From a virus: a stretch of DNA of 64,000 nt. Below are positions 8,733 to 47,571 of this stretch, piece after piece. Where the stretch lies: the IMG/VR virus record IMGVR_UViG_3300027816_000069, positions 58,351 to 122,350 of that record; one strand, given 5' to 3'. A program made the position numbers and the translations under genes. The notes under the pieces were generated by a model. The model was not told the DNA's origin, did not search any database, and saw nothing but the letters and a program-made list of their open reading frames with translations. Each line of letters starts with the position of its first letter. The stretch's first letter is position 1.

Positions 8733-8733
8733 A

Positions 8734-21795: not shown

Positions 21796-21798
21796 TAT

Positions 21799-22312: not shown

Positions 22313-22315
22313 TAA

Positions 22316-22670: not shown

Positions 22671-22672
22671 CT

Positions 22673-23017: not shown

Positions 23018-23053
23018 TCGATACTTGACAGCAGCATGAGCGTCTGGTACGAT
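23017..23053 (+). promoter_or_regulatory. sigma70-like promoter with GTCGATA upstream of -35
   Basis: GTCGATAC-TTGACA-17 nt-TACGAT, extended TG. Confidence 0.65.
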
Positions 23054-23078
23054 ACCATCAACACAGGAGACTAAACGG

Positions 23079-24395
23079 ATGACTCACGATTTTGATTATG
23101 TTTGGAAGATGGTAACTGCTCTTAGAAATACAAGCAGCACAAAAGAAAAAGAAGATATTATCAAGATTAATTGTGGAATTTTCAATAATTCATCTGCAAA
23201 TTTTGCTAAGAAAATTCTACTCTATACTTATCATCCACTTTGGCAATATCATGTAACCAGTGATAATTTAAAGAAGAAAAATTATTTGGTCGCCAGAAAG
23301 AATGAATACAAAAATTTCTTTGATCTGCTTGATGCTCTAAAGAGTCGTAAAATTACTGGGCATGATGCTATATCTGCTGTGAATAGTTTTGTCGAACATT
23401 ACGCTGACTATGAGGAACTTATTCATTGTGTTTTGGATAAAGACTTGAAAACCCGTGCTGGCGATAAGATCATTAATAAGGCTATTCCAGATCATATTCC
23501 AGAATTTAGTGTAGCCTTGGCCGATAAATATAGTCCAGATATTGTAGATTGGAAAGATGAATGGTATGTTAGTCGTAAGATCGATGGTGCTAGATGTATC
23601 GCTATTGTTGATAGTAATGGGGAGTCTACTTTTTATTCCCGCACGGGAAAAGAGTTTGATACTCTTGGTGTTGTTGCTGGTGGCATTAAGAGTTTGGGTG
23701 TTACTAATGTAGTATTTGATGGTGAACTTTGTCTTGTGGATGATGAGGGTAATGAAGATTTTCAGGGGATCATGAAACAACTCAAAAAGAAGGATCATAC
23801 CATCCCTAATCCTTCATATAAGATTTTTGATATGATTTCTCACGACGAATTTTATAGTAAGAAGGGCGAGAAGAACAAGCCTTATTCTATTCGCTATAAT
23901 AATCTACGAGAAGTTATGAAAAATAATACTTGTACTTGTCTTAGTGTGCTTGGTCAAGAACTTATTAAAGATGATGATCATTTTCAGGAGTGGATTAAAA
24001 AAAGTAAAGATTACAAGTATGAAGGACTTATGCTACGAGCAGACGAACCATATAAAGGGAAGCGTAGTAAAGATCTGCTGAAAGTTAAGAAGTTTTTTGA
24101 CGATGAGTATGAAGTTATTGATGTGGAAATGGGTCCATTTCGTTATGTATTGAATGGTAAAGAGCATGAGGAAACCATGCTTTCTTGCGTAATGATTAAG
24201 CATAAAGATCATGTTGTTAGAGTTGGTAGTGGATTTGCTATTGACCAAAGACAAGAGTTTTATCAAGACCCCAAAAAGATTCTTGGTAAAATTATTACGG
24301 TTCAATATTTTGAGGAAACTAAAAACCAAGAAGGCGGAATTAGTTTGCGTTTCCCAACATTTAAGTTTTTGCATGGGTCTGCTAGAACCGTTTAA
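23079..24395 (+). CDS. lig: ATP-dependent DNA ligase
   Basis: KIDGAR, FDGEL, EGLMLR, LLKVK, VGSGF and LRFP motifs. Confidence 0.95.
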   Translation: MTHDFDYVWKMVTALRNTSSTKEKEDIIKINCGIFNNSSANFAKKILLYTYHPLWQYHVTSDNLKKKNYLVARKNEYKNFFDLLDALKSRKITGHDAISAVNSFVEHYADYEELIHCVLDKDLKTRAGDKIINKAIPDHIPEFSVALADKYSPDIVDWKDEWYVSRKIDGARCIAIVDSNGESTFYSRTGKEFDTLGVVAGGIKSLGVTNVVFDGELCLVDDEGNEDFQGIMKQLKKKDHTIPNPSYKIFDMISHDEFYSKKGEKNKPYSIRYNNLREVMKNNTCTCLSVLGQELIKDDDHFQEWIKKSKDYKYEGLMLRADEPYKGKRSKDLLKVKKFFDDEYEVIDVEMGPFRYVLNGKEHEETMLSCVMIKHKDHVVRVGSGFAIDQRQEFYQDPKKILGKIITVQYFEETKNQEGGISLRFPTFKFLHGSARTV

Positions 24396-24405
24396 GAAAC
24401 GAGTC

Positions 24406-24434
24406 TTGACAAGACGATACCAGTAGTGTAGAAT
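24406..24434 (+). promoter_or_regulatory. sigma70-like promoter with GACGATA box
   Basis: TTGACA-17 nt-TAGAAT. Confidence 0.7.
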
Positions 24435-24464
24435 CGTAGCATACACGCTAACATTGGAGTTTTT

Positions 24465-25166
24465 ATGATTGTTGAGAACACTGTGGTCGATACCAATAAA
24501 GTTGAAATGAGCAAGACGAAGGCTGATATTTTCTTTGAGACTTTTCCTAAAGATAAGGTTGTCAAGTATAAGGAATATTGGGAGAGTGTTCGTCCTCAGA
24601 ATGTTGAGGATATTTTTCGTCGCTATCTTTTCAGTTTTATGAGCGTTCATACAACATGGAAGTCTAATGTTAGTGGCTATAACGCAATCAAAGACTTTAA
24701 TGATTGGATTGATAATAAAGAACTGCTGAGAGATAAGATTAAAAGTAGTGGTTGTGGGCTATACAACAATCGCACAAAGTTTATTTGGGATTTTAAGGAT
24801 AAATTTTGGTCTAATCCGAAAGACTTTTATCTAACAAACAAAAAGTATCATGTAAAAAAGAGAGATCAGATTGTCAATAATATTTCTGGACTAGGTACTG
24901 CAAAAGTTTCGTTTGCATTAGAGCAATGCCACCCTAATGAGTGTAGGGTATTTTGTGGTGATACTCATATGCTGGAATTGTATGGCATGAAAACTCTTAC
25001 TTATCAGTCTAAAAGGGGTCTTGAACAATATAAGAAAATGGAAAGACATTGGAGTATTAATTGTGGCAAATTAGGCGTTCCTCCTTATATTGCTAGATGT
25101 ATTTTTTGGGATGCAAAACAGAACAAGACCGATTCTCGTTATTGGTCGTATGTATTTGAAGAATAA
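24465..25166 (+). CDS. HhH-type DNA glycosylase (Ogg-like)
   Basis: RDQIV..ISGLG.AKVSF HhH motif followed by DTH. Confidence 0.65.
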   Translation: MIVENTVVDTNKVEMSKTKADIFFETFPKDKVVKYKEYWESVRPQNVEDIFRRYLFSFMSVHTTWKSNVSGYNAIKDFNDWIDNKELLRDKIKSSGCGLYNNRTKFIWDFKDKFWSNPKDFYLTNKKYHVKKRDQIVNNISGLGTAKVSFALEQCHPNECRVFCGDTHMLELYGMKTLTYQSKRGLEQYKKMERHWSINCGKLGVPPYIARCIFWDAKQNKTDSRYWSYVFEE

Positions 25167-25715: not shown

Positions 25716-27062
25716 GTGAAAATATCCAGAAGATCACTTATTCAAAGTGGCCTATTAGGCTACTCATCATTATCTGCAACTGAGGTTATAGCAGAATCTA
25801 AAACTGATAATTCAGTCATACTGGTTTGGTTGCCGGGCGGGCTTTCTCAATTAGAAAGTTATGATCCTAAATCACAAGCCAAAAGCGATGTAAAGGGATT
25901 ATTTAATAGTATTCCTACTAATGTGGTTGGAACTCATATTAGTGAACTATTTCCTTTACAGGCACAAATAGCAGATAAATTTACTCTTATACGATCTATG
26001 ACCCACAGATTCACCGATCATGGTGGAGGGTCCAAAAGAGTAATGACAGGAAAAGAACCCAAAGTTCCTACAGGTACTATTAACGATACTCCATCTATAG
26101 CATCAGTAGTTTCAAAACATAACCATAATAATGGTTGTATTATTCCATCTAATATTTTATTAGCGGATGGTGGCACTAATTCTGTTGATGAATTTGCACT
26201 AGGGTCTGCATTTTTGGGATCGTCATATGATGCCTTTATTGTTGATGGCGACCCTTCTGCTAAAAATTTTAAAGTAAACAATATTACTATGTCAGATAGT
26301 CTTAAAGGCAGAATTGATGATAGATTACAATTGCTATCTCAAATAGATAAAATAGATAGACAATTAGATTATTCGCAATCTATGAGTGCTATGGATAATT
26401 TTCATAAAAAGGCTTATGATTTATTAACTTCTCATGAAGTTAAAGGAATTTTTGATGTAGTCTCTGAGCCGTTATCTGTTAGAGAGAGTTATGGATTAAA
26501 TGCTTGGGGTCAAAGATGTCTTATGGCAAGAAAACTAGCAGAAGCAGGCAGTAATTTCGTAACTGTAACATTAAGAAATCCGCCAGGATCACCACCAGAT
26601 CATTCGTATTATAATTGGGATTGTCATGCTGTTAATTGCGATATATTTATAGATATGAAATATAAAGCAAATTTTTATGATCAGGCTGTTAGTGGATTAA
26701 TTAATGATATCTATAATAGAGGATTAGATAAAAATATTTTAGTTGTAGTAATGGGAGAATTTGGACATACTCCTAAATTAGAATATAAAGAAGCAAGAGG
26801 TAAAATAAGAAATGGTAGAGATCATTGGTCTAAAGCATTTTCTATATTAGTATCTGGTGGTGGATTAAAAATGGGTCAGGTTATTGGCAAAACAGATGAC
26901 AATGCTGCATTTGTAATTGATCGTCCTGTGACTCCAGAGGACTTGTGGGCCACGATTTATAGGCACTTGGGTATTGATGCGTCTAAAGTTATTTATGACC
27001 TCAGTGGTCGGCCAATTCCTATTTTAGCAGATGGCAGACCCATAAAAGAACTGGTGATTTAA
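25716..27062 (+). CDS. DUF1501-domain protein
   Basis: Tat-like SRR; GG.SQ.E.YDPK, IRSM.H...H, WD.H, GEFG.TP and GRDHW motifs. Confidence 0.9.
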   Translation: MKISRRSLIQSGLLGYSSLSATEVIAESKTDNSVILVWLPGGLSQLESYDPKSQAKSDVKGLFNSIPTNVVGTHISELFPLQAQIADKFTLIRSMTHRFTDHGGGSKRVMTGKEPKVPTGTINDTPSIASVVSKHNHNNGCIIPSNILLADGGTNSVDEFALGSAFLGSSYDAFIVDGDPSAKNFKVNNITMSDSLKGRIDDRLQLLSQIDKIDRQLDYSQSMSAMDNFHKKAYDLLTSHEVKGIFDVVSEPLSVRESYGLNAWGQRCLMARKLAEAGSNFVTVTLRNPPGSPPDHSYYNWDCHAVNCDIFIDMKYKANFYDQAVSGLINDIYNRGLDKNILVVVMGEFGHTPKLEYKEARGKIRNGRDHWSKAFSILVSGGGLKMGQVIGKTDDNAAFVIDRPVTPEDLWATIYRHLGIDASKVIYDLSGRPIPILADGRPIKELVI

Positions 27063-30094: not shown

Positions 30095-32761
30095 ATGAAG
30101 TTGGCAGACAGGACAGTTGAGACTCATAGCACTGGCATTAAGAGTGAGTCTGGTTTCACTATTGCACAAACCAGCAAAATGTTTAAAATCTTGTCAGACT
30201 CGCTGTATTCTGATAAGGTTATGGCCGTTATTCGTGAACTATCAACCAATGCTTATGATAGTCATATCGCTTCTGGCAATAAGAATCCATTCAAGGTGAT
30301 TCTGCCGAATGCTGCTAATCCTAACTTTGTAGTGCGTGATTATGGTACTGGTCTTAGTCAGGCCGATATGGAGAACCTGTATACAACATACGGGGCTAGT
30401 AACAAGAATACTAGTAACGATTTTGTTGGTTGTCTTGGTCTTGGTAGTAAGAGTCCTTTTGCTTATACCAAGAGTTTTACCACCAGTTCTTATTTTAACG
30501 GCCAAAAATATACTTATGTAGCCGCTATTGATGACTCTGGAGTGCCAACGCTGAATCTGTTTAATATCTCAGAAACAGATGAGCCTAATGGTCTAGAGAT
30601 TAGTTTTGCTGTAAAGCAATATGACTTTGCTGAATTTAGCAGTAAGTCTATGCGTATTTTTCACTATTTTAAGATGAAGCCAATTATTGAGGGTGGCGTA
30701 CTCAATAATCTAAAAGATCACAAGTACAGTAATCGTAGTATTGTTTTGAGTGGTGATGGATGGAGAGTTTGTCGTCTAAATAACGATGCTAATTATTATC
30801 CCAATGTTCATCATCATATTGATAGTGGTATTGTGGCACTTATGGGTAATATTGCATACCCTGTTAAGGCTAGTCAGATTATTGGTGAGGATAAGCAGAC
30901 CACTAATGATGCTATTCAGCGTTGGAATCGTGCTTTTCAAAAGGCCGATATCGACAGTTGGAAAAGTTTTGTTAATGAAATTATCAATCAGAACCTTTAT
31001 CTGGAACTTGACTTTAGTATTGGCGAATTGGAAATGGATGTTTCCAGAGAAGGCTTACAGTATACTAAAGACGTAATTAAGACCTTGCGTGAAAAGACTC
31101 AAGAGATTTATCTTGAGATGAAGGAAGAATTTAGCAAGAAAATTTCTGCCGCTAAAACTAAGGTAGAAGCAATTACACTATATTATACCCTTAATGATCT
31201 TGCTGGAGGATGGGGTGTTGGTGCTGAGTGGACCGATAGTAATGGTAAGAAGCATAATATTAATTCTGGAACAGATCTAGAATATAAGATTGCTGCCGGA
31301 AAGAGTATGTACGTTTTTAACTATCGTACTGCTGGCTATCGTTCTCGCCGCATGGTTTATCAGACAAATAGTATTCATCACAATACTCTTACTGGTAAGG
31401 GAGAATACTATTGGAATAGCCAGAAAAAGACAGGCGAACTATCCTTCTTTGTTTGCGACATTAAAACAGAAGAAACAGCAAAGAAGATTGTTACTAGATA
31501 TTGCAACGAGAAGAATTGCTTTGCATATCTAATGATTGATACCAAAGATCATACTAAAGTTGGTGAAGGTTTTGATGATCTTATTACTGATGTTGGTTCT
31601 CATAATATCAAGAAGGTTTCAGATTACAAAGACCTTATTAAGAATAATGGTCCTCGTAAGTCTAGCAATAGAGGTTCTACTGGCGTTATTAGTGATCAAG
31701 ATGTATTCTTTATTTATGGTCAATCTAAGAATAGTGGAACAATTTCTTCTGTTTATAACGATGCGACATATCTGCGTACTCTCACAGAATCTGAACTAGA
31801 AGATTTTGAAGATAGTACGGATATTGTTTATGTGCCCATTACGCGATATAGTAGCGATAGTGGCTATCCATCATTAATGGGCTTAAACAAGATTATCTCT
31901 GATAGTTCTTTGTCTACTATGGTCAAAGAATTGTTTGGATCAGTCAAAATATATGCTATTAAGAGTAACTTTGTTAAGAAGTTGCAGAACAGTGGATATA
32001 ATATGATTGATTTTAATAAGTTTTTCAAGACTCAACTAAAGAAATTGGCAAGCGGCACATTTGGTCAAATGGCCGAATACAATAGTCTGGTTCAGTTTTG
32101 CAAAAACGAAGATGCTAAGATGAGCAAAGACAGTGGATATGGATATGGGTCTATGGAGAAACAGTTTGTGTTCCATATGCTAAATATTTTTGGTCTAGAT
32201 TATAGTAAGCATCTAAATAACAAAGATTTGACCGATGCTATAGATCATTGTCTGGTCATAGAGTTTTTTGCTGATACTGTTCATCGTTCTAATTTTGATA
32301 TTGCTCGATTTACTCAGAAAGAGTATTTTGATCATATTACCAAACTACTAAATAAGATCGGTATCACCAGTATTGATAGTAAAAAGATCAAAGATAGTAA
32401 TATTGCATACAATACTCTGAGTCGTGCAATTGAACACACTATGTACAATTCGCTAGATCATGATGTTGTTTCTGAATGTCTGGAAATTATTAAGCCAGAT
32501 ATGACCAAGAAGCATACTCTGCCAAAGATTAGTGATATTAAAAATCTAATCAAGATCGGGCTTGACAACAACCCGATACTGAAGTATATTGTTGGTAGTC
32601 ACAGCGTTAGTGGTAATCTTAGGGATTTGCAATTGTCTAACGATCCTGTTTCTCAACTGCAAGAACGAAATTACTATTATAGAAATAGCAACAAGCCTTG
32701 GCTGGCAACTCTAAGTGATGTGGATTCTCTTAGAAAGCAAATTGGTAGTTTGGTTAAGTAA
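30095..32761 (+). CDS. rIIA: rIIA-like protein (GHKL ATPase N-terminus)
   Basis: LYSDK..AVIREL.TNA.D, RDYG.G, G.LGLGSKSPFAY and SRE.LQY; adjacent to rIIB. Confidence 0.88.
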   Translation: MKLADRTVETHSTGIKSESGFTIAQTSKMFKILSDSLYSDKVMAVIRELSTNAYDSHIASGNKNPFKVILPNAANPNFVVRDYGTGLSQADMENLYTTYGASNKNTSNDFVGCLGLGSKSPFAYTKSFTTSSYFNGQKYTYVAAIDDSGVPTLNLFNISETDEPNGLEISFAVKQYDFAEFSSKSMRIFHYFKMKPIIEGGVLNNLKDHKYSNRSIVLSGDGWRVCRLNNDANYYPNVHHHIDSGIVALMGNIAYPVKASQIIGEDKQTTNDAIQRWNRAFQKADIDSWKSFVNEIINQNLYLELDFSIGELEMDVSREGLQYTKDVIKTLREKTQEIYLEMKEEFSKKISAAKTKVEAITLYYTLNDLAGGWGVGAEWTDSNGKKHNINSGTDLEYKIAAGKSMYVFNYRTAGYRSRRMVYQTNSIHHNTLTGKGEYYWNSQKKTGELSFFVCDIKTEETAKKIVTRYCNEKNCFAYLMIDTKDHTKVGEGFDDLITDVGSHNIKKVSDYKDLIKNNGPRKSSNRGSTGVISDQDVFFIYGQSKNSGTISSVYNDATYLRTLTESELEDFEDSTDIVYVPITRYSSDSGYPSLMGLNKIISDSSLSTMVKELFGSVKIYAIKSNFVKKLQNSGYNMIDFNKFFKTQLKKLASGTFGQMAEYNSLVQFCKNEDAKMSKDSGYGYGSMEKQFVFHMLNIFGLDYSKHLNNKDLTDAIDHCLVIEFFADTVHRSNFDIARFTQKEYFDHITKLLNKIGITSIDSKKIKDSNIAYNTLSRAIEHTMYNSLDHDVVSECLEIIKPDMTKKHTLPKISDIKNLIKIGLDNNPILKYIVGSHSVSGNLRDLQLSNDPVSQLQERNYYYRNSNKPWLATLSDVDSLRKQIGSLVK
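32562..32590 (+). promoter_or_regulatory. promoter inside rIIA upstream of rIIB
   Basis: TTGACA-17 nt-TATATT with CCCGATA box. Confidence 0.55.
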
Positions 32762-32786
32762 TCACAGGAAACTAAGGAGATTTATA

Positions 32787-33659
32787 ATGAGTGTTCCATT
32801 TATGTTTGTTGACGGTAATTTGACTCTTGTTCTTAACAATAAGAGTTATCAGGTGTTGCCAGATCATCTAAACTATAAGATGATTCTGGAAGTTCTACCT
32901 ACTGCTAGTGCAGATGAACTGCTAGAGATGGTGGATATTCAAAAGGCCGTGACAGTTTATAGTCAGGGTCTTGTGGAGATCAAGGAAGGTCGTGTTCTTT
33001 ATGATAACGAAGAAGTACATGGTAGTATCAGTAAGCGTATTCTTGAGTTTATGAGCAAGGGTCTGCCATTTCAGCCTCTTGTTAATTTCTTGAATAACTT
33101 GATGGATAATCCTAGTATGCAGAGTCAGCAGGAACTATATGATTTCCTAGAGCATGAGCATCTGCCAATTACTGAAGATGGTCATTTTCTAGCATATAAG
33201 GCTGTTCGGTCAGATTATATGGACAAGTATGCTGGCAAGTTTCGTAACAAGGTTGGCGATATTTGTAAGATGACTCGTTCAAAGGTTGATGATAATCGTA
33301 GTGTGGGATGTTCTCAGGGACTTCATGCTGGGGCATTGAATTATGTTGCGTCTTATGGTAATGTAGATGCTGGTGATAAGATCGTGATTGTTAAGATCAA
33401 TCCTAAAGATGTAGTGAGTGTTCCTAGTGATTGTAATCATGAGAAACTTCGCACCTGCCAATATGAAGTTGTTGGAGAGTATCAGGGCGAATTGCTCAAG
33501 CCTCTTTACTCTGCTAATTTTAATGAAGATGATTATAATGATGATGAAGACGAGTATGATAATGACTATGATTGGGGATGGAATGACGATGAAGAAGATA
33601 TAGATGATGATTTTTATGCTGAACAAGAGGATGAAGAGGACTACGACGATCAATATTGA
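32787..33659 (+). CDS. rIIB: rIIB-like protein
   Basis: NPS....ELY.FL, IT.DG.FLAYK, CS.GLH, VK..P.DVVSVP.D and R.C.Y.V; acidic tail. Confidence 0.88.
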   Translation: MSVPFMFVDGNLTLVLNNKSYQVLPDHLNYKMILEVLPTASADELLEMVDIQKAVTVYSQGLVEIKEGRVLYDNEEVHGSISKRILEFMSKGLPFQPLVNFLNNLMDNPSMQSQQELYDFLEHEHLPITEDGHFLAYKAVRSDYMDKYAGKFRNKVGDICKMTRSKVDDNRSVGCSQGLHAGALNYVASYGNVDAGDKIVIVKINPKDVVSVPSDCNHEKLRTCQYEVVGEYQGELLKPLYSANFNEDDYNDDEDEYDNDYDWGWNDDEEDIDDDFYAEQEDEEDYDDQY

Positions 33660-33743: not shown

Positions 33744-34178
33744 ATGCACGAAGATTATGATGATCATGACTATGATGATGAGGACTACTATGATTATGAT
33801 GATAATGACCAGTATGATCCTTACAAGTTTTATTTCAAGTTTGATGTGGGTGCAGACTCACCAATATCAGATATGATTAATAAATGGTTTAATCTTAGTC
33901 AAGACTCTTTCAATGGATTACACTGGTATAGTTTTCCAACAAATATTGATGGTTGGCCTGTAATTAAGTTTCCTGTGAGTAGTTGGAATCCCAATACTGG
34001 CAAGGATAATTCCTTCCAGTATTTGGGGTCCAATTATCAAGGATCACCCATATGGAAAAAAAAGTATTTCGTATATAATCCTCTAAATATAGAGTATAAA
34101 TTACATTTACAGCAACACGCTACACATTTTATACAACAACCGACATATTACAAAGGAATGTTTGATATACTCAACTAA
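33744..34178 (+). CDS. hypothetical protein with acidic N-terminus
   Basis: AAGGA RBS; D/Y-rich start. Confidence 0.65.
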   Translation: MHEDYDDHDYDDEDYYDYDDNDQYDPYKFYFKFDVGADSPISDMINKWFNLSQDSFNGLHWYSFPTNIDGWPVIKFPVSSWNPNTGKDNSFQYLGSNYQGSPIWKKKYFVYNPLNIEYKLHLQQHATHFIQQPTYYKGMFDILN

Positions 34179-34187: not shown

Positions 34188-34607
34188 ATGAGCGAATGGT
34201 TTGTAGTTAAAGACAAAGATCATTTAATAGAATCAACCAGAATATTAGTATTTAATAGTTTTGGTAATACAGAATCTAATGTTAAACTAAGTATTAATTC
34301 ACAAGACCAAGAAGAATTAGATACTATATTATCTTTCAATGAAACTGAAAATATTATGATGCCACATTTGCGTAAGCAAAGAAATAAACGCACCAACGCA
34401 GAAAGATATCTATTAGAAGATAAGCAATATCAAGAAATCATTCAATTACTTGGATCTCGTATGGTTAGTAATATTCTACATGGTCTAGTAAAGAAGGGAC
34501 TAGTAGAATCAGCATTTGATACTGAATGTAATGATTTTATTTTTTGGGTGCCAGACTTGGAAAAGGGCTTAGAGTCAAATGAAGAAAACAAACCAGAAAC
34601 CGATTGA
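34188..34607 (+). CDS. hypothetical protein (paralog of 21799..22182)
   Basis: L..LVKKGLVESAFD...NDFIFW. Confidence 0.7.
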   Translation: MSEWFVVKDKDHLIESTRILVFNSFGNTESNVKLSINSQDQEELDTILSFNETENIMMPHLRKQRNKRTNAERYLLEDKQYQEIIQLLGSRMVSNILHGLVKKGLVESAFDTECNDFIFWVPDLEKGLESNEENKPETD

Positions 34608-34977
34608 ACACGATGTACACCTAAAATATTTGTGTAAGAAGTGTGGTCAAATTCATTGGCTATCTCTTAAAGAGTCGTCTACCAAACACTTTAAAATTGT
34701 TTGTGACTGTGGTAATATTTTTGGAGTAAAGCGAACATCCAGAATCAAGATTCTGTATTCTAAAGTTTCCAAAACTTCTACAACCACTAAATCACCACCT
34801 ACTTCAACTCCACAACCTATTCCCGACTCTTTATTGTCACAAGGAATTGGTGTGTTGTTGCCCTATGGCTTTACAAAAAAAGAAGCCAGTGAACTGTTAG
34901 AGAAAACGTATATGCTGCATCCTACACAGGATATAGCGTCTTTGGTTAAAGAATCATTATCTTCATTAAGGAACTAA
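34579..34977 (+). CDS. Zn-ribbon plus RuvA domain III-like protein
   Basis: C..C...H and C.CG N-terminus; S/T/P linker; C-terminal GIGVLLPYGFTKKEA..LL...DIASLVKESL resembling RuvA_C; directly upstream of ruvB. Confidence 0.65.
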   Translation: MKKTNQKPIEHDVHLKYLCKKCGQIHWLSLKESSTKHFKIVCDCGNIFGVKRTSRIKILYSKVSKTSTTTKSPPTSTPQPIPDSLLSQGIGVLLPYGFTKKEASELLEKTYMLHPTQDIASLVKESLSSLRN

Positions 34978-34979
34978 TT

Positions 34980-35885
34980 ATGGCAAACTATCTTAGACCA
35001 TCATCTTTTGACGAAGTAATCGGCCAAGGCGATACTATCAACCGTCTAAAAATCATGGTGAGAGGCTGTTTAAAATCTGGAGGGGTGCTACCTCATGTTT
35101 TAATTGACGGGCCTCCTGGCCTTGGTAAAACGACAATAGCGGGTGCTATAGCGAACGAGTTGGGGGTCAACTTGTATACGCTCAATGCGGCCAATATCCG
35201 TAGCATCAAGAACATCCTTCCGTATTTAATGAGCATATCTCCACGATCAGTATTGTTTATTGATGAGATTCATAGACTGCCTAAGATTGTAGAAGAATTT
35301 CTATATCCAATCATGGAGGATTTTGTTCTTAGTATTACTGTGAAAGATGATAATGATAAAGAACAACCAACAACTATTGATCTTCCGGCCTTTACATTGG
35401 TAGGAGCAACAACTAGCGGTGGCAGTTTGAGCCAGCCTTTCTATGATCGTTTTATCATTAAAGAACATCTATCTTTTTATAACCTGAGTGAGTTAGCCAA
35501 ACTAGCAGGATTGACAGCAAACAAACTCGGACTAATGATAGACGACTATAGTCTTGAGCAAATTGCTATGAGGAGTAAAGGTACTCCTAGAATTTTGCAA
35601 AGTAGGTTGCACTGGTATAGGAATTATATCATGTGTGAAAAAGATACTAAGAATGATATTGATGCTATTTTTCAACTACAGGGTATAGATAGTCAGGGAT
35701 TAGATGTATATGATAGATTGTACCTAGATATTTTGCGTAAGGCTAAAGGAAATCCTTTAGGATTGAAAACCATATCTTCTATGACAGGAATAGCCATAGA
35801 GACTATTGAAAATAGTATTGAGCCTTATCTTGTAAGAGCTGGATTTATTCAGCGCACACCAAAAGGAAGAATTATAGTAAAATAG
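34980..35885 (+). CDS. ruvB: Holliday junction branch-migration ATPase RuvB
   Basis: LRP..F....GQ, GPPGLGKTT, LFIDEIHRL, GATT, DRF, GTPR and EPYL...G...RTP.GR. Confidence 0.93.
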   Translation: MANYLRPSSFDEVIGQGDTINRLKIMVRGCLKSGGVLPHVLIDGPPGLGKTTIAGAIANELGVNLYTLNAANIRSIKNILPYLMSISPRSVLFIDEIHRLPKIVEEFLYPIMEDFVLSITVKDDNDKEQPTTIDLPAFTLVGATTSGGSLSQPFYDRFIIKEHLSFYNLSELAKLAGLTANKLGLMIDDYSLEQIAMRSKGTPRILQSRLHWYRNYIMCEKDTKNDIDAIFQLQGIDSQGLDVYDRLYLDILRKAKGNPLGLKTISSMTGIAIETIENSIEPYLVRAGFIQRTPKGRIIVK

Positions 35886-35950: not shown

Positions 35951-35986
35951 TGCGATTTTTGTTTCACGATAATGGAGTATTCCACC

Positions 35987-36729
35987 ATGAAACGCATAAT
36001 ATTACTATGGTTATTTTTGATATGCTCAATTTCTTATGGTGGTACTGGTAGTCCCGACACGCCAGATGATAAATATGTAGATTATGGCAAAAAATTTACA
36101 TCAGTAGTAAGAATTTGTGGTTCATATAAAAATAATCCACAAGAACAATACTGTGGATCAGCGGTGATTATTAGTCCTCACTATATTGTGACTGCTGCTC
36201 ATGTTGTCAGGGGTTCTAGGTCTTGTCATATAGTATTAAATAATAAAAACTATGAAATTACTCAAGTTGTCGCCCACCAAGACTTTGAAAAAGATACTTT
36301 AGATAGTGCTGATATTGCAGTAGGGTATAGTAAGGAACCTATGAACCTAGACTCTTATCCTGAACTTTATACTGAACAAGACGAAAAAAATAAGTCATGT
36401 GCATTATCTGGATTTGGTTTTGCTGGTAATTTTAATAGTGGTGCAACATTTAGTGACGGTGAAAGAAGAGCTGGTACTAATGTAATAGATTATGTAAATA
36501 AGGGGCTATTATTTTGCTCTCCATCAAAACCCCAAGAAAAAAACACAACTAGATTAGAATTTCTAATTGCTAGTGGAGATAGTGGTGGTGGTCTTTTTAT
36601 AGGTAATAAATTAGCTGGTATTCATTCATTTATTTTTGCAGATAAAAACCTAAGTCAGATTATCTTACTGAATCAGCACACACTAGAATTAGTAAGTATG
36701 CGGATTGGATTAAGGAAAACATGAAATGA
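35987..36729 (+). CDS. secreted trypsin-like (S1) serine protease, frameshifted near the C-terminus
   Basis: Signal peptide, TAAH, DIA, GDSGG; the S1 C-terminus HTRISKYADWI is in the -1 frame after the A5 run at 36644-36648. Confidence 0.85.
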
Positions 36730-37667
36730 AACGCAATGATTATTCTCTATTACCATATACTAGACAAGATATATATGGATTATCTCCAAAAGTTAGTCAA
36801 ATTTTAGGGTGGGAAATTATTCAGTTTGATATTGTTGAGCAATGGAAGTATTGTAGTGGTGATGATGTTATTGTGGCGGTGATAGATACTGGTTGTGATT
36901 TAGATCATCCAGATTTATCTAAAAATTTATTACAAGGAATTAATCTTATAGACTCTAAAAAAGACCCAATAGACGATAATGGTCATGGCACTCATGTGTG
37001 TGGCACTATAGGAGCATCTCATAATAGTATAGGCATGGTTGGTGTAGCGCCAAATACCAAAATTTTACCTATAAAAGCATTAGATGGTGCTGGATCTGGT
37101 AGTAATAAAGATATTGCAAGAGGTATAGTTTATGCTGCTGATAGGGGATCGAATTTGATTGCTATGTCTTTAGGTTCTCCAAATTTTTCTCAAGCTCTGT
37201 ATGATGCAATAATTTATGCTACTAAGAAAAATAGTATTATTTTTTGTGCTGCTGGTAATGCTGGAGAAAATACTCCAATCATGTATCCAGCAAAACATAA
37301 AGAGACCATAGCAATAGGCTCTATTGATCGTAACCTGAATAGATCAACATTTACTTGTAAGGGTGAAGAATTAGATTTTTTATGTCCAGGACAAGATATA
37401 TTTAGTTGTGTACCAAATAATACATATGCTATTATGAGTGGAACTAGCATGGCTAATCCATTCGCTGTTGGTTGTGCCTCATTAGTATTGTCTTTTTATA
37501 AATCACAAAAGCAAGAACATAAACTTTCTTCTAAAGAAGACTATATTAATTTATTCAAACAAATGAGTAAGAGTCTGAAAAATAGCAAATATGCGGGAAA
37601 GAAAGAGTATGAAGGATATGGTATAATATACCCAAGTATAGGTAATATTACTGCCCCACCTGCATAA
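36726..37667 (+). CDS. subtilisin-like (S8) peptidase
   Basis: VAVIDTG, HGTH, AAGN and SGTSMA. Confidence 0.92.
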   Translation: MKRNDYSLLPYTRQDIYGLSPKVSQILGWEIIQFDIVEQWKYCSGDDVIVAVIDTGCDLDHPDLSKNLLQGINLIDSKKDPIDDNGHGTHVCGTIGASHNSIGMVGVAPNTKILPIKALDGAGSGSNKDIARGIVYAADRGSNLIAMSLGSPNFSQALYDAIIYATKKNSIIFCAAGNAGENTPIMYPAKHKETIAIGSIDRNLNRSTFTCKGEELDFLCPGQDIFSCVPNNTYAIMSGTSMANPFAVGCASLVLSFYKSQKQEHKLSSKEDYINLFKQMSKSLKNSKYAGKKEYEGYGIIYPSIGNITAPPA

Positions 37668-39778: not shown

Positions 39779-40783
39779 ATGGCAATCGGATTAGACGTTG
39801 GTACAAGTTATATTGTGGCTTCTAGAGAAAATAATGGCAATGTGGAATATAAGGACTTTAGAGACGCTTTTTATATTATTAAGCCAACAACACCAGTAGC
39901 CACCAAAATGATTGAGAAAGGACTATCTGGTAAGATTTTCATTAAGGATAGTGATGGTTCTTTTATTATTCTTGGTAAAGACGCTTTAGAAAAAGCTATA
40001 GAAAGAAATGATACGGCTAAACGCCCAATGTATCGTGGAGTAGTTTCAGCCAAAGAAAAAGACGCTAAAAGAATTCTAGCTTTTATTCTTAAAGAAGTTG
40101 TTGGAACAGCCTCAGAACCCAATGAACCACTAGTTTTCTGCGTTCCTGCACAACCAGTTGATCAAGATGATGAAGATTTTGATGTTGGATATCATGAAGA
40201 TGTAGTAAAGACTGTGCTAGCAGAATGTGGCTATAATGCTCGTGCTATTAATGAAGCAGAAGCTCTGTGTTATGCGGAACTAGAATCCGATGATTATACT
40301 GGCATTGGAATAAGTTGTGGAGCAGGAATGACGAATGTTTGTGTGATGCTTAACGGCGAGCCAACTGTGGTTTTTAGTACCACCAAGAGTGGCGATTGGA
40401 TTGATCGTATGAGTGCCGTAGCCACAGGAGAAACGGACAGTGTTGTTCAGGCTGAAAAAGAGGGCGGCGATTTTAAAATTGGCGAACCAAATGATAATCC
40501 TGTGTTGTCCGCAGTTTCAGCATATTATGAAAGATTAATTGACTATACAACCAAGCAACTATCTGCTGCACTATCTAATCATAAATCATTACCCAAATTT
40601 AAAAATCCCATTAAAATTGTGATTGCTGGGGGAACATCACAAGCAAAAGGATATATTAGTAATTTTCAAATGAAACTGAACGACAATGGTTTTCCATTAC
40701 AAGTTAAAGAAGTGGTTCACGCTAATGATCCACTCCATGCGGTATCGAAGGGTTGTCTGATAGCATCAAAGGCTCTATCATAA
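39779..40783 (+). CDS. actin-like ATPase (MreB/FtsA/MamK superfamily)
   Basis: GLDVGT phosphate-1, INEAEA connect-1, GAGMTN phosphate-2, IAGGTS adenosine, P..AV.KG connect-2. Confidence 0.85.
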   Translation: MAIGLDVGTSYIVASRENNGNVEYKDFRDAFYIIKPTTPVATKMIEKGLSGKIFIKDSDGSFIILGKDALEKAIERNDTAKRPMYRGVVSAKEKDAKRILAFILKEVVGTASEPNEPLVFCVPAQPVDQDDEDFDVGYHEDVVKTVLAECGYNARAINEAEALCYAELESDDYTGIGISCGAGMTNVCVMLNGEPTVVFSTTKSGDWIDRMSAVATGETDSVVQAEKEGGDFKIGEPNDNPVLSAVSAYYERLIDYTTKQLSAALSNHKSLPKFKNPIKIVIAGGTSQAKGYISNFQMKLNDNGFPLQVKEVVHANDPLHAVSKGCLIASKALS

Positions 40784-41797: not shown

Positions 41798-42157
41798 ATG
41801 TTTGTTATAAAAAAATGGGGTTATGAATTTTGGATTGAAAATAATAATAAATATTGTGGTAAACATTTACATATAATACCAACCAGATTTTGCTCGGCAC
41901 ATTATCATAAAAATAAACAAGAGACATTTTATGTCATAAATGGTGAATTATTATTAGAATACTCATCAGATCAAAGTATAGAAACTTGGCAATATGGGGT
42001 TAAACATAAAAAGATATTGAAGTCAGGCGATTCTTTTACTATCATGCCAAATATTGTACACAGATTTTCTAGTAATCTTAATACCCCTTGTGATTTTATA
42101 GAAATTTCTACATATCATAGTGATGATGATGTTTATAGGATTATAGAAAGTTTCTAA
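41798..42157 (+). CDS. cupin sugar isomerase-like protein
   Basis: K.WG.E, S.HYH..K.ETF, H.F and EIST. Confidence 0.8.
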   Translation: MFVIKKWGYEFWIENNNKYCGKHLHIIPTRFCSAHYHKNKQETFYVINGELLLEYSSDQSIETWQYGVKHKKILKSGDSFTIMPNIVHRFSSNLNTPCDFIEISTYHSDDDVYRIIESF

Positions 42158-42450
42158 TGATCTATTATATAGATATCGATAATACTATATGTCATACCAT
42201 TGATAGTAATTATTGGAGGGCTAAGCCCCTAAAAGATAGAATTACTAAAATCAATAATCTCTTCCATGCGGGACACACAATAATATATTGGTCTGCTAGA
42301 GGATCACATTCTGGTAAAGATTGGTATGATTTTACAGATCAGCAACTTAATGACTGGGGATGCCTAAGACATAAGCTAGTTCTACAAAAGCCAGCATATG
42401 ATATATTTATTGATGATAAAGTTATAAATACAAAGGACTTCTTTGAATAA
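42157..42450 (+). CDS. short HAD phosphatase (capsule-biosynthesis type)
   Basis: DIDNT, SARG, KP and IDDK. Confidence 0.8.
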   Translation: MIYYIDIDNTICHTIDSNYWRAKPLKDRITKINNLFHAGHTIIYWSARGSHSGKDWYDFTDQQLNDWGCLRHKLVLQKPAYDIFIDDKVINTKDFFE

Positions 42451-43217
42451 TGAAACATATAGCAGTTATTGGAGAAGTATGTACTGATGAATATATATTT
42501 GGTCAATGTGATAGAGTGTGTCCAGAAGCTCCATCATTATGCTTTAATCACAATAATAAGAAACATACAAATGTAGGTATGGCTGGTAATGTTTATAGTA
42601 ATTTAGTGTCGCTCAATAACAATAGTTATCTATTTAATATAGATTTAATAGCACCAGTATCGGACATTATAAAAAGAAGATTTGTAGATACTAGATATAA
42701 CAGTGTAGTATTTAGAGAAGATATTAATGATAGTGTATCAAAAATAGATTTACATAAATATGTTTTTAATCAGTATGATTGTATTGTTTTTGCGGATTAT
42801 TGCAAGGGCTTTTTATTAGAATCAGATATACAATATATTTGTGAACAAAAAAAGAATACTTGTATTACGTTTTTAGATACTAAAAAACAACTTAAAAGTC
42901 TAGCTCCTTATATTAATTTCATAAAAATTAATCATCTTGAATACAAGAATAATATGCAATATTTAGATATTATTACTGAATATGCAAAATTAATAGTGAC
43001 ATACGGCGAAGAAGGAGCAAAAGCATTTACAAAAACAGATGTCAAACACTATCCTTCTAAGAAAGTAATTTTAAGAGACGTTTGTGGTGCTGGTGATACA
43101 TTTTTAGCAGCATTAGTATTTAATTATTTGGATACAAATAATATAGATATGGCTATAAATTTTGCTAATACTTGCGCATCAAAAGTAGTCTCACAAGTTG
43201 GTGTGGCTACTATATGA
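42450..43217 (+). CDS. HldA/RfaE1-like heptose-7-phosphate kinase (PfkB)
   Basis: D.Y..G...R..PEAP, G.AGNV, DY.KG and DV.GAGDTF. Confidence 0.85.
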   Translation: MKHIAVIGEVCTDEYIFGQCDRVCPEAPSLCFNHNNKKHTNVGMAGNVYSNLVSLNNNSYLFNIDLIAPVSDIIKRRFVDTRYNSVVFREDINDSVSKIDLHKYVFNQYDCIVFADYCKGFLLESDIQYICEQKKNTCITFLDTKKQLKSLAPYINFIKINHLEYKNNMQYLDIITEYAKLIVTYGEEGAKAFTKTDVKHYPSKKVILRDVCGAGDTFLAALVFNYLDTNNIDMAINFANTCASKVVSQVGVATI

Positions 43218-43615
43218 CAACAGTTTGGACGAATGGATGTTTCGATATCCTACATATAGGACATATCGAATTGTTTAAATACGCTAGATCTTTAGGGGAT
43301 CAACTAATTGTTGGTATTGATAGTGATAATAGGGTTCGATCCCTAAAAGGCACATCTCGACCAATTAATAATCAAGAATATAGAAAACAACTATTAAATA
43401 GTATTAAATATATAGATAATGTTGTGATTTTTAATTCTGATACTGAACTAAAGGAAAATATTAAGATATTTCATGTTGATATGATAGTTATTGGTGATGA
43501 TTATAAAGATCGATATGTAATAGGATCTGAATTAGTGAAGAATATAATTTTTATGCCAAAAATTTTAAATATATCAACCACATCTATTTTAGAAAGAATA
43601 CATTCAGATGCATGA
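43214..43615 (+). CDS. HldC/RfaE2-like heptose-1-phosphate nucleotidyltransferase
   Basis: TNGCFDILH.GH, KG..RPIN, G.DY and STT. Confidence 0.85.
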   Translation: MTTVWTNGCFDILHIGHIELFKYARSLGDQLIVGIDSDNRVRSLKGTSRPINNQEYRKQLLNSIKYIDNVVIFNSDTELKENIKIFHVDMIVIGDDYKDRYVIGSELVKNIIFMPKILNISTTSILERIHSDA

Positions 43616-44528
43616 TCTTGATATTATCCATAACTTCTATAAAGATATCAATAAAAAAGTATCTTATCCTATTGACTTTCAAAACTTTACACTTATTAAT
43701 GCCAATACTGGCATTGGTGATGCCCTATCTTTATATATTATAGACTCACCTATAAAAGACAATAATATTAAAGTAATAGTTCAACATCCTTCGATAGTTC
43801 AAGAATTAGCACAATATAACAATTATATACCAACAATTAATCATCAACATAATTGGTATAGTAGTATAATAAGCGTATTAGATATTCAATTATACTCTAA
43901 TTTTGGTGGTCATTTTTTACAAAAAAATCAACAATTTCTAGGCTTAGATACTGATATAATACCGAGACCTAAATTAGTATCTAGTGCTCAAATAGAATCT
44001 AATAAAGTTGTTATGACTTTTGACAAAGGAATTGTGCATCAACAACATATACATCCTAGAGCTAGAATTATATACGATGAATCAAAACAAATTATTCAAA
44101 CATTTATTAATAATCATAAACATCAATATCGTTTTGTGGAAGTTGGTAAGTATTCTTTAGGTCTTGATAATGTAGAAAATAAAACTAATATAGGTATACG
44201 CGGCACGGCAGATGAAATAGCGTCATGCGAATATTTTTTTGGTAATCATAATGGATTAATGCATATCGCAGCAGGTTTAGAAAAAAAATCTATTATTATT
44301 GTGAATTTTCCTAGTGCCAAAGATATTATCTTACCGTGTCTCAAAAAAGTAAATATACCAGATATTGATTGGTTATATCCACAAAACACACATCTGCATC
44401 AAGATAATGACGGCCTATTAGTCAAGAAACTTACATATGAAAACATACAAAAGGCATTTAATGGTGAAATATATCCATTTTTTCAAAATAATTATATTTT
44501 TAATACCTTTCAAAATTTAATGAGTTAA
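43608..44528 (+). CDS. GT9 heptosyltransferase-like glycosyltransferase
   Basis: GIGD N-terminus; FFG...GLMHIAAGL.K motif. Confidence 0.7.
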   Translation: MHDLDIIHNFYKDINKKVSYPIDFQNFTLINANTGIGDALSLYIIDSPIKDNNIKVIVQHPSIVQELAQYNNYIPTINHQHNWYSSIISVLDIQLYSNFGGHFLQKNQQFLGLDTDIIPRPKLVSSAQIESNKVVMTFDKGIVHQQHIHPRARIIYDESKQIIQTFINNHKHQYRFVEVGKYSLGLDNVENKTNIGIRGTADEIASCEYFFGNHNGLMHIAAGLEKKSIIIVNFPSAKDIILPCLKKVNIPDIDWLYPQNTHLHQDNDGLLVKKLTYENIQKAFNGEIYPFFQNNYIFNTFQNLMS

Positions 44529-44530
44529 TT

Positions 44531-45118
44531 ATGTCTAATGAAACTAAAAAAGCGTCTAATAGAAGGAAAAATACTTGGTTATATAATAAAATATTCTCAG
44601 GTTATGGTATAGATATAGGCTGTGGATCGGATATACTGAATAAAGAACAAGAATTTCCAAATATTATTCAAGTGGATCCTTTTGATATAGAGCATGGAGA
44701 TGCTCAATATATAAATCAATTTGTTCACAATCAATATGATTTTGTGTATAGTTCTCAATGTTTAGAGCATATGTATGATCCTTTTATTAGTATTAAAAAC
44801 TGGTGGTCGATAGTCAAACCAGGAGGGTATTTGATTTTAAGCGTTCCAGATGAAGACCTGTACGAGCAAGGGATTTTCCCTTCTAGGTGGAATAATGATC
44901 ATAAATGGACTTTTTCTATCAATAAAAAGAACAGTTGGAGTAAAAAACATATAGATATATTGTATTTAATATCCTCATTAAATAATTTTTCCATAATAAA
45001 AATAGAGCTGATAGATACTAATTACGACTATTCTATTGTAAATACTGATCAAACAAGAAGTGATGCCGAAGCTTTTATTGAAGTTATACTAAAAAAGGAA
45101 AATAACAAATGCATATAA
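44531..45118 (+). CDS. class I SAM methyltransferase
   Basis: DIGCG, YDFVYSSQCLEH and VKPGG. Confidence 0.85.
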   Translation: MSNETKKASNRRKNTWLYNKIFSGYGIDIGCGSDILNKEQEFPNIIQVDPFDIEHGDAQYINQFVHNQYDFVYSSQCLEHMYDPFISIKNWWSIVKPGGYLILSVPDEDLYEQGIFPSRWNNDHKWTFSINKKNSWSKKHIDILYLISSLNNFSIIKIELIDTNYDYSIVNTDQTRSDAEAFIEVILKKENNKCI

Positions 45119-45747
45119 AATTTAATTCAGAAGACTATGAAAAAATTATAGAAATAGCAGATTCGTTTTGTAAAGACATAACCGATCAGTTTGGTTGTGA
45201 TATAGCAGAAATTCATTTGCTTATATATAAGCTTATAAGCACTTTAAAACCAAAAACATATGCGGAAATAGGCTCTCATGCTGGCAGGTCCGCTTTTTTT
45301 GCAAGCGTAGCCAGTTCAGAATTTGAAACTGAAATATATTGTTTTGACAAACCCAATGCCGGTTGGGGAGGAGTTCCAAATACACAGCTTTTTTTAGAAA
45401 AGACCCTTAATACAGTAGCTCATAACAGATATCAAATATATTATGGAGATTCTCATAGTGACCTTATAAAAGAAAAAATAAAAGAAAAAATATATGATTT
45501 ATTTTTAATAGATGGAGATCATTCACCGGATGGTATGATGGCGGATTTTGCTGTTGTTTGGGAAAATGTTAGGTCTCAAGGTTTGATTATTATAGACGAT
45601 TTGTTTCATCATCCAGATCTCGATGTTGCTTTTGATAAAATAATTTTAGATTATAAAATTGATACATATATAAAATATATAAATAGCGATGCTATTGATT
45701 ACAGTAGAATACTGCATAGAGGAGTCGGGATAATTCAAAAACCATAA
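45109..45747 (+). CDS. SAM methyltransferase (Methyltransf_24-like)
   Basis: EIG...G.S, GDS, IDGDH and IIDD. Confidence 0.85.
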   Translation: MHIKFNSEDYEKIIEIADSFCKDITDQFGCDIAEIHLLIYKLISTLKPKTYAEIGSHAGRSAFFASVASSEFETEIYCFDKPNAGWGGVPNTQLFLEKTLNTVAHNRYQIYYGDSHSDLIKEKIKEKIYDLFLIDGDHSPDGMMADFAVVWENVRSQGLIIIDDLFHHPDLDVAFDKIILDYKIDTYIKYINSDAIDYSRILHRGVGIIQKP

Positions 45748-45899
45748 ACCTAAAATAAAAAAAGAAAGATTATTGAAATTAGAATCTTACGTTGCTGCTT
45801 TGCGGGGATCTGCTAAAATAATGAGGATATTGGGTTTGAGACTGACTTATGCATTTCAAAATTTATTTGAGCATACTAGTGGGCTAATTAAAATAACGA

Positions 45900-46433
45900 A
45901 TGATGAATAGACTAAACAATCAAAGAGTTTATCTGGCTGGTGCTATGGATAGGGTAGCAGATAGAGGCTCCACATGGAGAGATAATATTACGCCTTTCCT
46001 AGAAAATATTGGAGTTATAGTATTTAACCCAATCAAAAAACCAACAGACATAGGATTAGAAGATAATGATAGTCATGCTGTTAAAACTAAACTAAAACAG
46101 CAACGACGATATGAAGAACTATCATCTATGATGAAAACTATTCGTAGTGTGGATCTACGATTAGTTGATATTAGTGATTTTCTGATAGTTAATCTTGATT
46201 TGGACGTTCACCCATGCGGCACATATGAAGAAATGTTTCTTGCAAATCGTTCAAAAAAACCTATAATTATTCATGTAGAGCAAGGTAAGGAACATACACC
46301 GGATTGGCTCTTTGGAACCATTCCTCATCAAATGTTTTTCTCAAACTGGAAAGATATAGAACATTACCTAACTCATATCAATAGCGATGAAAATATAGAT
46401 ACCTATAATCGTTGGCGATTCTTTAATATGTAA
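45900..46433 (+). CDS. nucleoside 2-deoxyribosyltransferase-like protein
   Basis: VYLAG.M, WR, FNP, D...V..SD and GT.EE. Confidence 0.75.
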   Translation: MMNRLNNQRVYLAGAMDRVADRGSTWRDNITPFLENIGVIVFNPIKKPTDIGLEDNDSHAVKTKLKQQRRYEELSSMMKTIRSVDLRLVDISDFLIVNLDLDVHPCGTYEEMFLANRSKKPIIIHVEQGKEHTPDWLFGTIPHQMFFSNWKDIEHYLTHINSDENIDTYNRWRFFNM

Positions 46434-46437
46434 TTAT

Positions 46438-47571
46438 ATGCAAAAACTAATTAACGAAATAAAACTAGATTTTGATGATGTTTTGATTAGACCAAAAAGG
46501 TCCACACTCAACAGCAGATCAGAAGTTGATTTATCAAGAACCTTCAAGTTTGCACATTCTCCTAGAGAATTAACTTGTGTGCCGATTATGGTTGCTAATA
46601 TGGATACTGTTGGAACAGTAGGTATGGCTAAGTCATTAACACAACATAAAGCGATAACCTGTTTACATAAGCATTATGACTCAGACACTCTGATTAAGCT
46701 ATTTACTTTAAAACCATCTACTGAGCTGATATGGTATTCTACAGGAACTTCTCAAAAAGATTTATCAAAACTAGAAGGGGTTTTTTATACTATCAGAGCA
46801 AGTGGTGGGTATATTCCTAATGTGTGCTTGGATGTGGCAAATGGATATACAGAACAATTTGTCAAAACTGCCGCACACTTACGCAAATCTTTTCCAGAAA
46901 TTATTTTAATGGCTGGGAATGTGGTTACTCCAGAAATGACTGAAGAACTTATTCTTCATGGCAAAGTTGATATAGTCAAGGTTGGTATAGGCTCAGGTAG
47001 TGTTTGCACCACACGTTTAAAAACGGGCGTGGGATACCCTCAATTGAGCGCTATAATGGAATGCGCCGACGCTGCTCATGGTCTAAAAGGTCATTTATGT
47101 AGCGATGGAGGATGTAAAATTGTTGGAGATATTTGTAAGGCATTTGGTGGTAATAGTGATTTTGTAATGCTTGGTAGTATGTTTGCTGGAGCGGATGAGT
47201 GTGAGGGAGAATGGGAATATGAATATCGCGGAGCCATAATTAATAACGACAACACTGTACTCTGTGAGTGGTGGCAGCCGAACGATCCTGGTTCACAAAC
47301 AGAAAAAAGAAAAAAAACGTTTAAGTATTATGGAATGAGCAGTAAAAACGCGATGGACAAACACCATAATGGAGTAGCAGATTACAGAACAGCAGAGGGT
47401 AAATGTGTTACTGTTCCATATAAAGGACCAGCATCAGAAATTATACAAGATATCTATGGTGGCTTAAGAAGCGCATGCACATATATTGGAGCAAATAATA
47501 TAAAAGATTTTGGCAAAAAAACAACATTTATACAAGTTAATAACACTCATAATAAGGTATATGAAAAATGA
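46438..47571 (+). CDS. guaC: GMP reductase
   Basis: LDF.DVLIRPKRSTL.SRS, ANMD, DVANGY, KVGIG.GSVCTTR and Y..AEGK. Confidence 0.93.
   Translation: MQKLINEIKLDFDDVLIRPKRSTLNSRSEVDLSRTFKFAHSPRELTCVPIMVANMDTVGTVGMAKSLTQHKAITCLHKHYDSDTLIKLFTLKPSTELIWYSTGTSQKDLSKLEGVFYTIRASGGYIPNVCLDVANGYTEQFVKTAAHLRKSFPEIILMAGNVVTPEMTEELILHGKVDIVKVGIGSGSVCTTRLKTGVGYPQLSAIMECADAAHGLKGHLCSDGGCKIVGDICKAFGGNSDFVMLGSMFAGADECEGEWEYEYRGAIINNDNTVLCEWWQPNDPGSQTEKRKKTFKYYGMSSKNAMDKHHNGVADYRTAEGKCVTVPYKGPASEIIQDIYGGLRSACTYIGANNIKDFGKKTTFIQVNNTHNKVYEK

Follow-up and report, generated by a model that had tools for sequence, protein, structure and literature searches.

Two jobs are ascribed to RuvA, holding the Holliday junction open and controlling the RuvB motor through its domain III. 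In the bacterial proteins (E. coli, T. thermophilus and M. tuberculosis; PDB 1ixs, 1c7y, 2ztc and 7pbp) domain III is a three-helix unit on a flexible linker, accompanied by domain I (an OB fold) and domain II (two helix-hairpin-helix, HhH, motifs), and ruvA lies immediately upstream of ruvB. It has been reported, in the excerpted text of Wald et al. (2022, PMC9477746), that domain III binds RuvB's helix alpha-3 together with its presensor-1 hairpin, holds the motor to the core formed by RuvA and the junction, and acts as a nucleotide-exchange factor that drives ADP release. Here we describe a locus of a freshwater phage that combines a ruvB with a much altered partner gene. The DNA analysed, referred to below as the window, is a stretch of 64,000 nt that forms the right-hand 64 kb (positions 58,351 to 122,350) of a 122,350-bp linear IMG/VR virus record, IMGVR_UViG_3300027816_000069, estimated by CheckV to be 88% complete. 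On its plus strand a gene for a zinc-ribbon/RuvA-domain-III protein of 132 aa, here called ZR (34579..34977, stop codon included), stands directly before a ruvB of 301 aa (34980..35885). ZR stands where RuvA does, just before ruvB, and has kept a flexible linker and a domain III that would dock on RuvB, whereas a small and strongly basic zinc ribbon takes the place of the tetrameric OB and HhH clamp on the junction. We favour, with some reserve, the reading that ZR is a cut-down and rebuilt derivative of RuvA, which would tether and regulate the phage's own RuvB.

Compared with bacterial RuvA of about 200 aa, the phage-encoded ZR has neither domain I nor domain II and carries a basic zinc ribbon of 60 residues instead; lacking the OB and HhH domains, it is not known to have any way to form a tetramer or to clamp a Holliday junction. 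The motif ..L..[YL]G[FY]...E[AS]...L...LIK..L is common to ZR and to domain III of the bacterial proteins. Nothing on a ZR-RuvB pair was found in print, and with 412 cluster representatives the locus is a widespread new variant of the RuvAB system. Phrase searching returned no paper on a phage or viral RuvB, although supplementary gene tables may list such proteins, and among the papers listed by a broader literature search work on RuvB was only eukaryotic or from Mycoplasma. The available portion of a survey of jumbo phages describes RuvC resolvases that are not coupled to a RuvB-like ATPase (PMC7824862).

Architecture of ZR and its relation to RuvA

ZR falls into three parts: residues 1-60 (34579..34758) comprise a basic N-terminal tail and a CxxC...CxC zinc ribbon, residues 61-82 (34759..34824) are a low-complexity linker rich in S, T, P and K, and residues 83-132 (34825..34974) form a three-helix domain that we regard as the homologue of RuvA domain III. 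A model built with AlphaFold2 on the family alignment, with a mean per-residue confidence (pLDDT) of 82.7, places a four-stranded zinc ribbon at 14-49 and helices at 83-96, 100-113 and 119-131, separated by a low-confidence linker at about 60-82 (pLDDT 56-57 over residues 61-82). In the alignment of 56 homologues the residues C19, C22, C42, C44, Y17, H26, W27, S29, T35, V41, G97 and F98 are invariant. The Cys/His zinc ribbon, the S/T/P linker and the C-terminal segment that a sequence-only reading of this DNA had described are all present, the segment GIGVLLPYGFTKKEASELL...DIASLVKESL corresponding to residues 89-127. Across the 56 homologues the linker is 13 to 38 residues long, and it tolerates large changes in length, since a relative of 184 aa (L057, 5971-6525) carries a long Pro/Val-rich repeat of APIVV-like units between ribbon and domain III.

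A search of 5.8 billion proteins, over the range of 72-231 aa, gave 155 homologues at E <= 0.01, and an exhaustive hidden Markov model search gave the 412 cluster representatives at E <= 0.001, the best 150 of which are 80-184 aa long. On these comparisons ZR is a real, conserved gene. No fused or longer form was found at 232-2000 aa, which the tool itself rates as weak evidence. A search of IMG/VR with the ZR protein alone gave no match, as did three divergent single homologues used as queries, and the relatives were obtained through the family alignment. In the collection of cultured phages there was no match at the DNA level and matches to ZR at the protein level were at chance level only. 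PHROGs and PADLOC hold no family for ZR, NCBIfam gave nothing relevant to it and no match to a RuvA model, and the BFVD viral structures contain no full-length look-alike, with no row at E <= 0.001. Three contigs placed in bins of bacterial metagenome-assembled genomes carry ZR; one of these, of 141 kb, is probably the phage itself.

Comparison of the C-terminal domain with known proteins consistently returned RuvA. All six matches of the ZR family profile among PDB sequences were to domain III of RuvA, the best being T. thermophilus 1ixs_A (E 0.0021, covering the whole domain), the domain III of the RuvA-RuvB complex. Aligned by hhalign with 34 RuvA sequences, the family matched with a probability of 78.5 and P 1.7e-5 over 54 columns, ZR 79-132 falling on RuvA 145-198 of 199 aa, that is, on domain III from end to end. 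Of these 34 sequences 3 were from Acinetobacter and 31 were drawn from sampled genomes, because the Acinetobacter-seeded search for RuvA had given only Acinetobacter proteins at 89-97% identity. By fold, the top 10 Foldseek rows were all RuvA (probabilities 0.96-0.99, E 0.24-0.76), with TM scores of 0.74-0.75 against chains consisting of domain III only and a root-mean-square deviation (rmsd) of 1.4-2.5 on 9 of the 10. With VIA-align, run against 48,161 representative chains, RuvA took ranks 1-4 and 6 over 48-50 residues at an rmsd of 1.6-2.4 and Z scores of 7.5-6.2, values under 8 which may mean no more than a common arrangement, three-helix bundles of the ubiquitin-associated (UBA) type being common. 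The Pfam family RuvA_C (PF07499) was matched at E <= 1 by 9 of the 56 family members (best 0.0018) and had no match at the DNA level in the 122-kb record. Automatic annotation places RuvA_C on 50% of the 52 members of a neighbouring viral cluster in the ESM Atlas, and the JGI label of one ZR homologue is RuvABC DNA-binding subunit. Taken together these tests agree, and the C-terminal domain of ZR is in all likelihood homologous to RuvA domain III; profile, profile-profile and fold comparisons alike bear out what had been proposed from the sequence.

The rest of RuvA was not detected. There was no match to domain I (RuvA_N, PF01330) in ZR or its 56 homologues at E <= 1, nor in the 122-kb record, nor in any of five complete relatives (CheckV 100%, 157-223 kb), in a search that detected RuvA_N in 10 of 14 named control genomes. 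Domain II (HHH_5, PF14520) is likewise absent from ZR and from the 122-kb record, and in the ZR model strands and linker occupy its place. The earlier statement that the junction-binding domains are missing therefore holds, and these phages possess RuvB and a protein bearing domain III while lacking a recognisable junction-clamping RuvA core.

Phage RuvB and its pairing with ZR

The 301-aa protein is, as judged from its sequence, a complete three-domain RuvB. Pfam recognises RuvB_N (3.8e-46), the RuvB lid AAA_lid_4 (1.4e-7) and RuvB_C (1.5e-19), and the NCBIfam equivalog NF000868 is passed with 305.3 bits against a cut-off of 282. Eighteen sequences of solved RuvB proteins match at E <= 1e-20 (best 2e-67), aligning residues 5-298 with the presensor-1 hairpin included. 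Walker A and B, sensor 1, the arginine finger and sensor 2 are all present, and the translation contains the RuvB motifs GPPGLGKTT (44-52), FIDEIH (93-98), GATT (142-145), DRF (156-158) and GTPRI (201-205), the residues of which are nearly all invariant in 39 phage RuvBs and otherwise at least 90% conserved. The phage protein thus resembles the bacterial ones in its three domains, its catalytic motifs, the presensor-1 hairpin and the basic residues of its C-terminus that contact DNA: its QRTPKGR (R-x-x-K-G-R) takes the position of E. coli QRTPRGR, and in the consulted part of a study of P. aeruginosa RuvB the corresponding arginines touch DNA (PMC10071043). It differs from them in forming a distinct phage group, in missing some 20 N-terminal residues of the solved RuvBs and in scoring 277.9 bits with TIGR00635, narrowly under the cut-off of 299.05. 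The stretch VEEFLYPxMEDF of helix alpha-3 is invariant in the 39 phage RuvBs and the hairpin is kept too; as catalytic signalling may account in part for the conservation of this helix, that conservation does not decide between the readings weighed below.

RuvB is 61-94% identical among the relatives, and full-length tblastn matches in records labelled as phage are 37-43% identical. The one match whose context was inspected (H36) proved to be bacterial, a ruvA-ruvB region under a phage label; the stretch, recorded as 'Acinetobacter phage MD-2021a' (L084; CAKLQF020000007.1, 130329-139219), holds purL, dgt, ruvA, ruvB, tolQ and tolA and is bacterial chromosome rather than phage. Another match (H5) carries no annotation.

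The two genes are closely joined. The junction reads AAC TAA TT ATG, a gap of 2 nt as the sequence-only reading had it, and a candidate ribosome-binding site, AAGGA, lies 7 nt ahead of the ruvB ATG within the last codons of ZR. This arrangement fits coupled translation, and ruvB is probably translationally coupled to ZR. The pairing is conserved in relatives: ruvB directly follows ZR in 93 of 93 distinct viral loci, although their ZR proteins are only 27-69% identical to the window copy. A first search of IMG/VR with the family alignment gave 204 relatives, of which the best 80 were followed up, and a second with divergent members gave 152, from which 80 loci were taken; ruvB came directly after ZR in all 80 loci of the first and in all 56 loci that were new in the second. 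The 160 loci reduce to 93 distinct ZR DNA sequences. Every locus was obtained by searches based on ZR, and among these 93 none has ZR without ruvB. The RuvB match begins within 60 nt downstream in 90 of them, and in the other three it overlaps ZR or the match stopped at a long linker. Where both open reading frames are complete (51 distinct protein pairs, taking the most upstream possible starts) the frames often overlap. The same order, ruvA then ruvB, was seen in the one bacterial record inspected.

Directly upstream of ZR lies up139 (139 aa; 34188..34607, plus strand), which overlaps the start of ZR by 29 nt and occupies this position in 92 of the 93 loci. Possibly the RuvB cassette has in it a third member. 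Its only resemblances are sub-threshold hints of a winged helix (of 41 members, 11 showed DsrD and 10 HTH_56; AdcR gave E 0.16). In the group of relatives to which L070 and L071 belong, an insert of about 680 nt separates up139 from ZR.

Prediction of the complex between phage RuvB, entered as an alignment, and ZR 78-132 gave a score of 0.55 (runs of 0.58, 0.54 and 0.55), the runs agreeing in at least 66% of contacts with a partner pLDDT of at least 84, while the best of three controls scored 0.00, as did both controls in which an unrelated protein took the place of ZR. No interface was reported. Among 80 solved complexes 58 attain the mark that this score passes, and among 110 mismatched pairs 2 do so. 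Only 7 of the 80 solved complexes attain it with a score of 0.60 or less, as do both of the passing mismatches, and 0.55 lies in a band where a prediction fails more often than it holds, unless the pairing had been likely from the start. Complexes of domain III with RuvB have moreover been solved already, so that the pass may reflect likeness alone. The support that the prediction lends to binding is weak. Homology and synteny make the interaction likely in advance, and on that footing ZR probably binds the phage RuvB.

Role of the zinc ribbon and competing interpretations

The ribbon is built from CxxC and CxC knuckles on two beta-hairpins, the cysteines lying at the turns between strands 14-18 and 25-29 and between strands 39-41 and 47-49. 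C19, C22, C42 and C44, invariant in 56 of 56 homologues, form the predicted metal site. Across these homologues the N-terminal domain has a mean net charge of +8.7 (range +4 to +12) and an isoelectric point of 9.6, and the C-terminal domain is mildly acidic (mean -1.3). Folded alone, the N-terminal domain reaches a pLDDT of 82.3. Its matches are to generic ribbons only: VIA-align finds ZitP (Z 3.6, the best) and LysW (Z 3.1), with ribbons of RNA polymerase and of ribosomal proteins also among them, Foldseek returns generic ribbons with a best E of 0.57, the best match of the ribbon profile among PDB sequences, the AgmX ribbon, is not significant (E 0.099), and none of the named Pfam ribbon families reaches its cut-off for ZR or its homologues. 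With matches of this kind no function can be read off the zinc ribbon. Our best guess, for which we would give roughly even chances, is that it binds DNA, in view of its charge, of the many lysines in its N-terminal tail and of the residues Y17, W27, F38, K36, K39, K51, K57 and Y60, which are invariant or nearly so.

Under the interpretation of ZR as a RuvA derivative, ZR and RuvB would be made together, as the 2-nt gap and the ribosome-binding site in the 3' end of ZR suggest, and domain III of ZR would act on RuvB, by homology with that of RuvA, as both tether and nucleotide-exchange factor. The zinc ribbon and the lysine-rich tail might anchor the complex to DNA, if charge and conserved aromatic and basic residues are a guide. 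The RuvB hexamer would then pump duplex DNA and shift the branch points of recombination or fork intermediates that a RecA-like recombinase of the phage had produced, and endonuclease VII could resolve these intermediates; recombinase, RuvB-ZR and endonuclease VII would together make up a putative toolkit for recombination. When protein and magnesium are high, RuvB can drive branch migration by itself, which would make a minimal tether plausible. Phage T4 offers a parallel, with a branch-migration ATPase (UvsW), a small partner (UvsW.1), the UvsX/RecA recombinase and the resolvase endonuclease VII. The analogy is functional only: UvsW is a superfamily 2 helicase unrelated to the AAA+ protein RuvB, and no homology is claimed.

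Several observations weigh against this interpretation. Each of the domain III tests is modest when taken singly, with Foldseek E values of 0.24-0.76, VIA-align Z scores below 8 for an arrangement that may be a common one, and a Pfam RuvA_C score for the window ZR of 12.8 bits (E 0.18) against a cut-off of 24 bits; the complex score falls in the unreliable band described above. The zinc ribbon has no match among known DNA-binding modules, and its nearest matches, ZitP and LysW, bind proteins. It is not obvious how a monomeric ribbon could do what the RuvA tetramer does in keeping a four-way junction open. There is no RecA match in the window's own record, which is a fragment 88% complete. The modest statistics, together with the synteny of the entire block rIIB-up144-up139-ZR-ruvB, by which adjacency alone is not specific, would suit a quite different explanation, namely that the C-terminus of ZR is a common three-helix (UBA-like) bundle unrelated to RuvA that neighbours ruvB as part of a conserved block of early genes. 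We consider this improbable, as methods independent of one another all rank RuvA domain III first (six of six profile matches, hhalign P 1.7e-5 and the fold ranks), ZR sits exactly at the place of ruvA, and the complex score was 0.55 for ZR and 0.00 for both unrelated-protein controls.

The protein-binding character of ZitP and LysW points instead to an adaptor, in which domain III would bring RuvB to a protein partner held by the zinc ribbon. Candidates for such a partner are the recombinase, endonuclease VII, up139 and parts of the replisome, and RuvB would act on structures that the partner chose, for example D-loops or stalled forks. The co-conservation of up139 in 92 of 93 loci and its overlap with the start of ZR would agree with this, and up139, given its winged-helix hints, could itself supply DNA binding. 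The ribbon matches are however weak and generic, and a mean charge of +8.7 suits nucleic acid better than a protein surface, so that we judge an adaptor unlikely. A decoy or hijacker of the host would be a further use for a domain that docks on RuvB: domain III of ZR would bind host RuvB and either block the host RuvAB or recruit host RuvB to phage DNA. In the accessible text of Wald et al. (2022, PMC9477746), RuvA and RuvB of different species can cooperate, and stand-alone phage domain III proteins, able to meet host RuvB only, may exist. The strict coupling of ZR to the phage's own ruvB, which follows it in 93 of 93 loci with the frames often overlapping, argues against a pure decoy of host RuvA, and a decoy would titrate the phage's own motor too; we hold this explanation to be very improbable.

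One elaboration of the cassette deserves mention as a tentative proposal, doubtful when all of its parts are taken jointly. The genes up139, ZR and ruvB might constitute a self-contained phage cassette, a RuvB motor without the Holliday-junction clamp, in which RuvB would be loaded at some other substrate by a monomeric tether of zinc ribbon and domain III, perhaps with help from up139 as a putative winged-helix protein; this could be the D-loops or forks of recombination-dependent replication.

Genomic setting and significance of the locus

Upstream of up139 and ZR the window encodes rIIA (30095-32761), rIIB (32715-33659) and up144, a gene of unknown function (33744-34178). A candidate junction resolvase of the endonuclease VII family is present at 22646-23017 on the plus strand (Pfam Endonuclease_7 1.2e-10; phrog_2633 3.3e-20) and a second endonuclease-VII-like gene at 17409-18116 on the minus strand. 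Among the five complete relatives, the endonuclease VII family is present in all five, a RecA-family gene scores over the cut-off in all five and RuvC does so in none. The repair genes of the window also include an ATP-dependent ligase, UvdE, an Ogg-type glycosylase, a 2-oxoglutarate and Fe(II)-dependent (2OG-Fe(II)) oxygenase and ThyX; the set at 14837-25166, in which these stand with the two endonuclease-VII-like genes, is unusually rich for a phage.

Directly 3' of ruvB are a trypsin-like protease and a subtilase (35972-37667), homologues of which lie downstream of ruvB in many related contigs. Elsewhere in the window we note RtcB with an RNA ligase (5920-9759), a DUF1501 family protein (25716-27062; 3.3e-79), here in a phage genome, and an actin-like protein (39779-40783) matching Pfam Volactin across its full length at 3.9e-63. 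A block of sugar and nucleotide genes at 41798-48641 comprises a cupin, a phosphoheptose-isomerase-like gene, a PfkB kinase, a cytidylyltransferase, two methyltransferases, a nucleoside deoxyribosyltransferase-like gene, a member of the IMPDH/GMP-reductase family and a GT4 glycosyltransferase. Promoter and terminator scans found nothing beyond chance. Nearly unchanged, the sequence occurs in 20 listed sequencing runs from 16 studies, 11 labelled as freshwater metagenome and 9 as fungus metagenome, and none of the runs listed is an RNA run.

The ZR-RuvB locus documents a phage-encoded RuvB. Its wider interest is that the two jobs of RuvA are separated here: a large and old phage family, whose 412 cluster representatives include genomes of 157-223 kb, keeps the motor and the domain III handle while the clamp has been swapped for a ribbon of 60 residues. 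It is thus a natural minimal system in which to ask to what extent branch migration depends on the core of RuvA, whether domain III alone is enough as a nucleotide-exchange factor and whether RuvB can be aimed at other DNA structures. Domain III may also be found on a different N-terminal module in bacteria, in a Myxococcota cluster of the ESM Atlas (59 members) labelled HNH on 64% and RuvA_C on 49%, by automatic labels only; stand-alone domain III proteins are likewise known from labels alone. In the phage collection neither kind matches ZR by sequence, and no phage ruvB is reported as paired with them. If the cassette proposal is true, domain III alone would be a minimal, portable handle for steering RuvB, one that would have been reused more than once, given the bacterial HNH-domain III fusions and the stand-alone domain III proteins of other phages.

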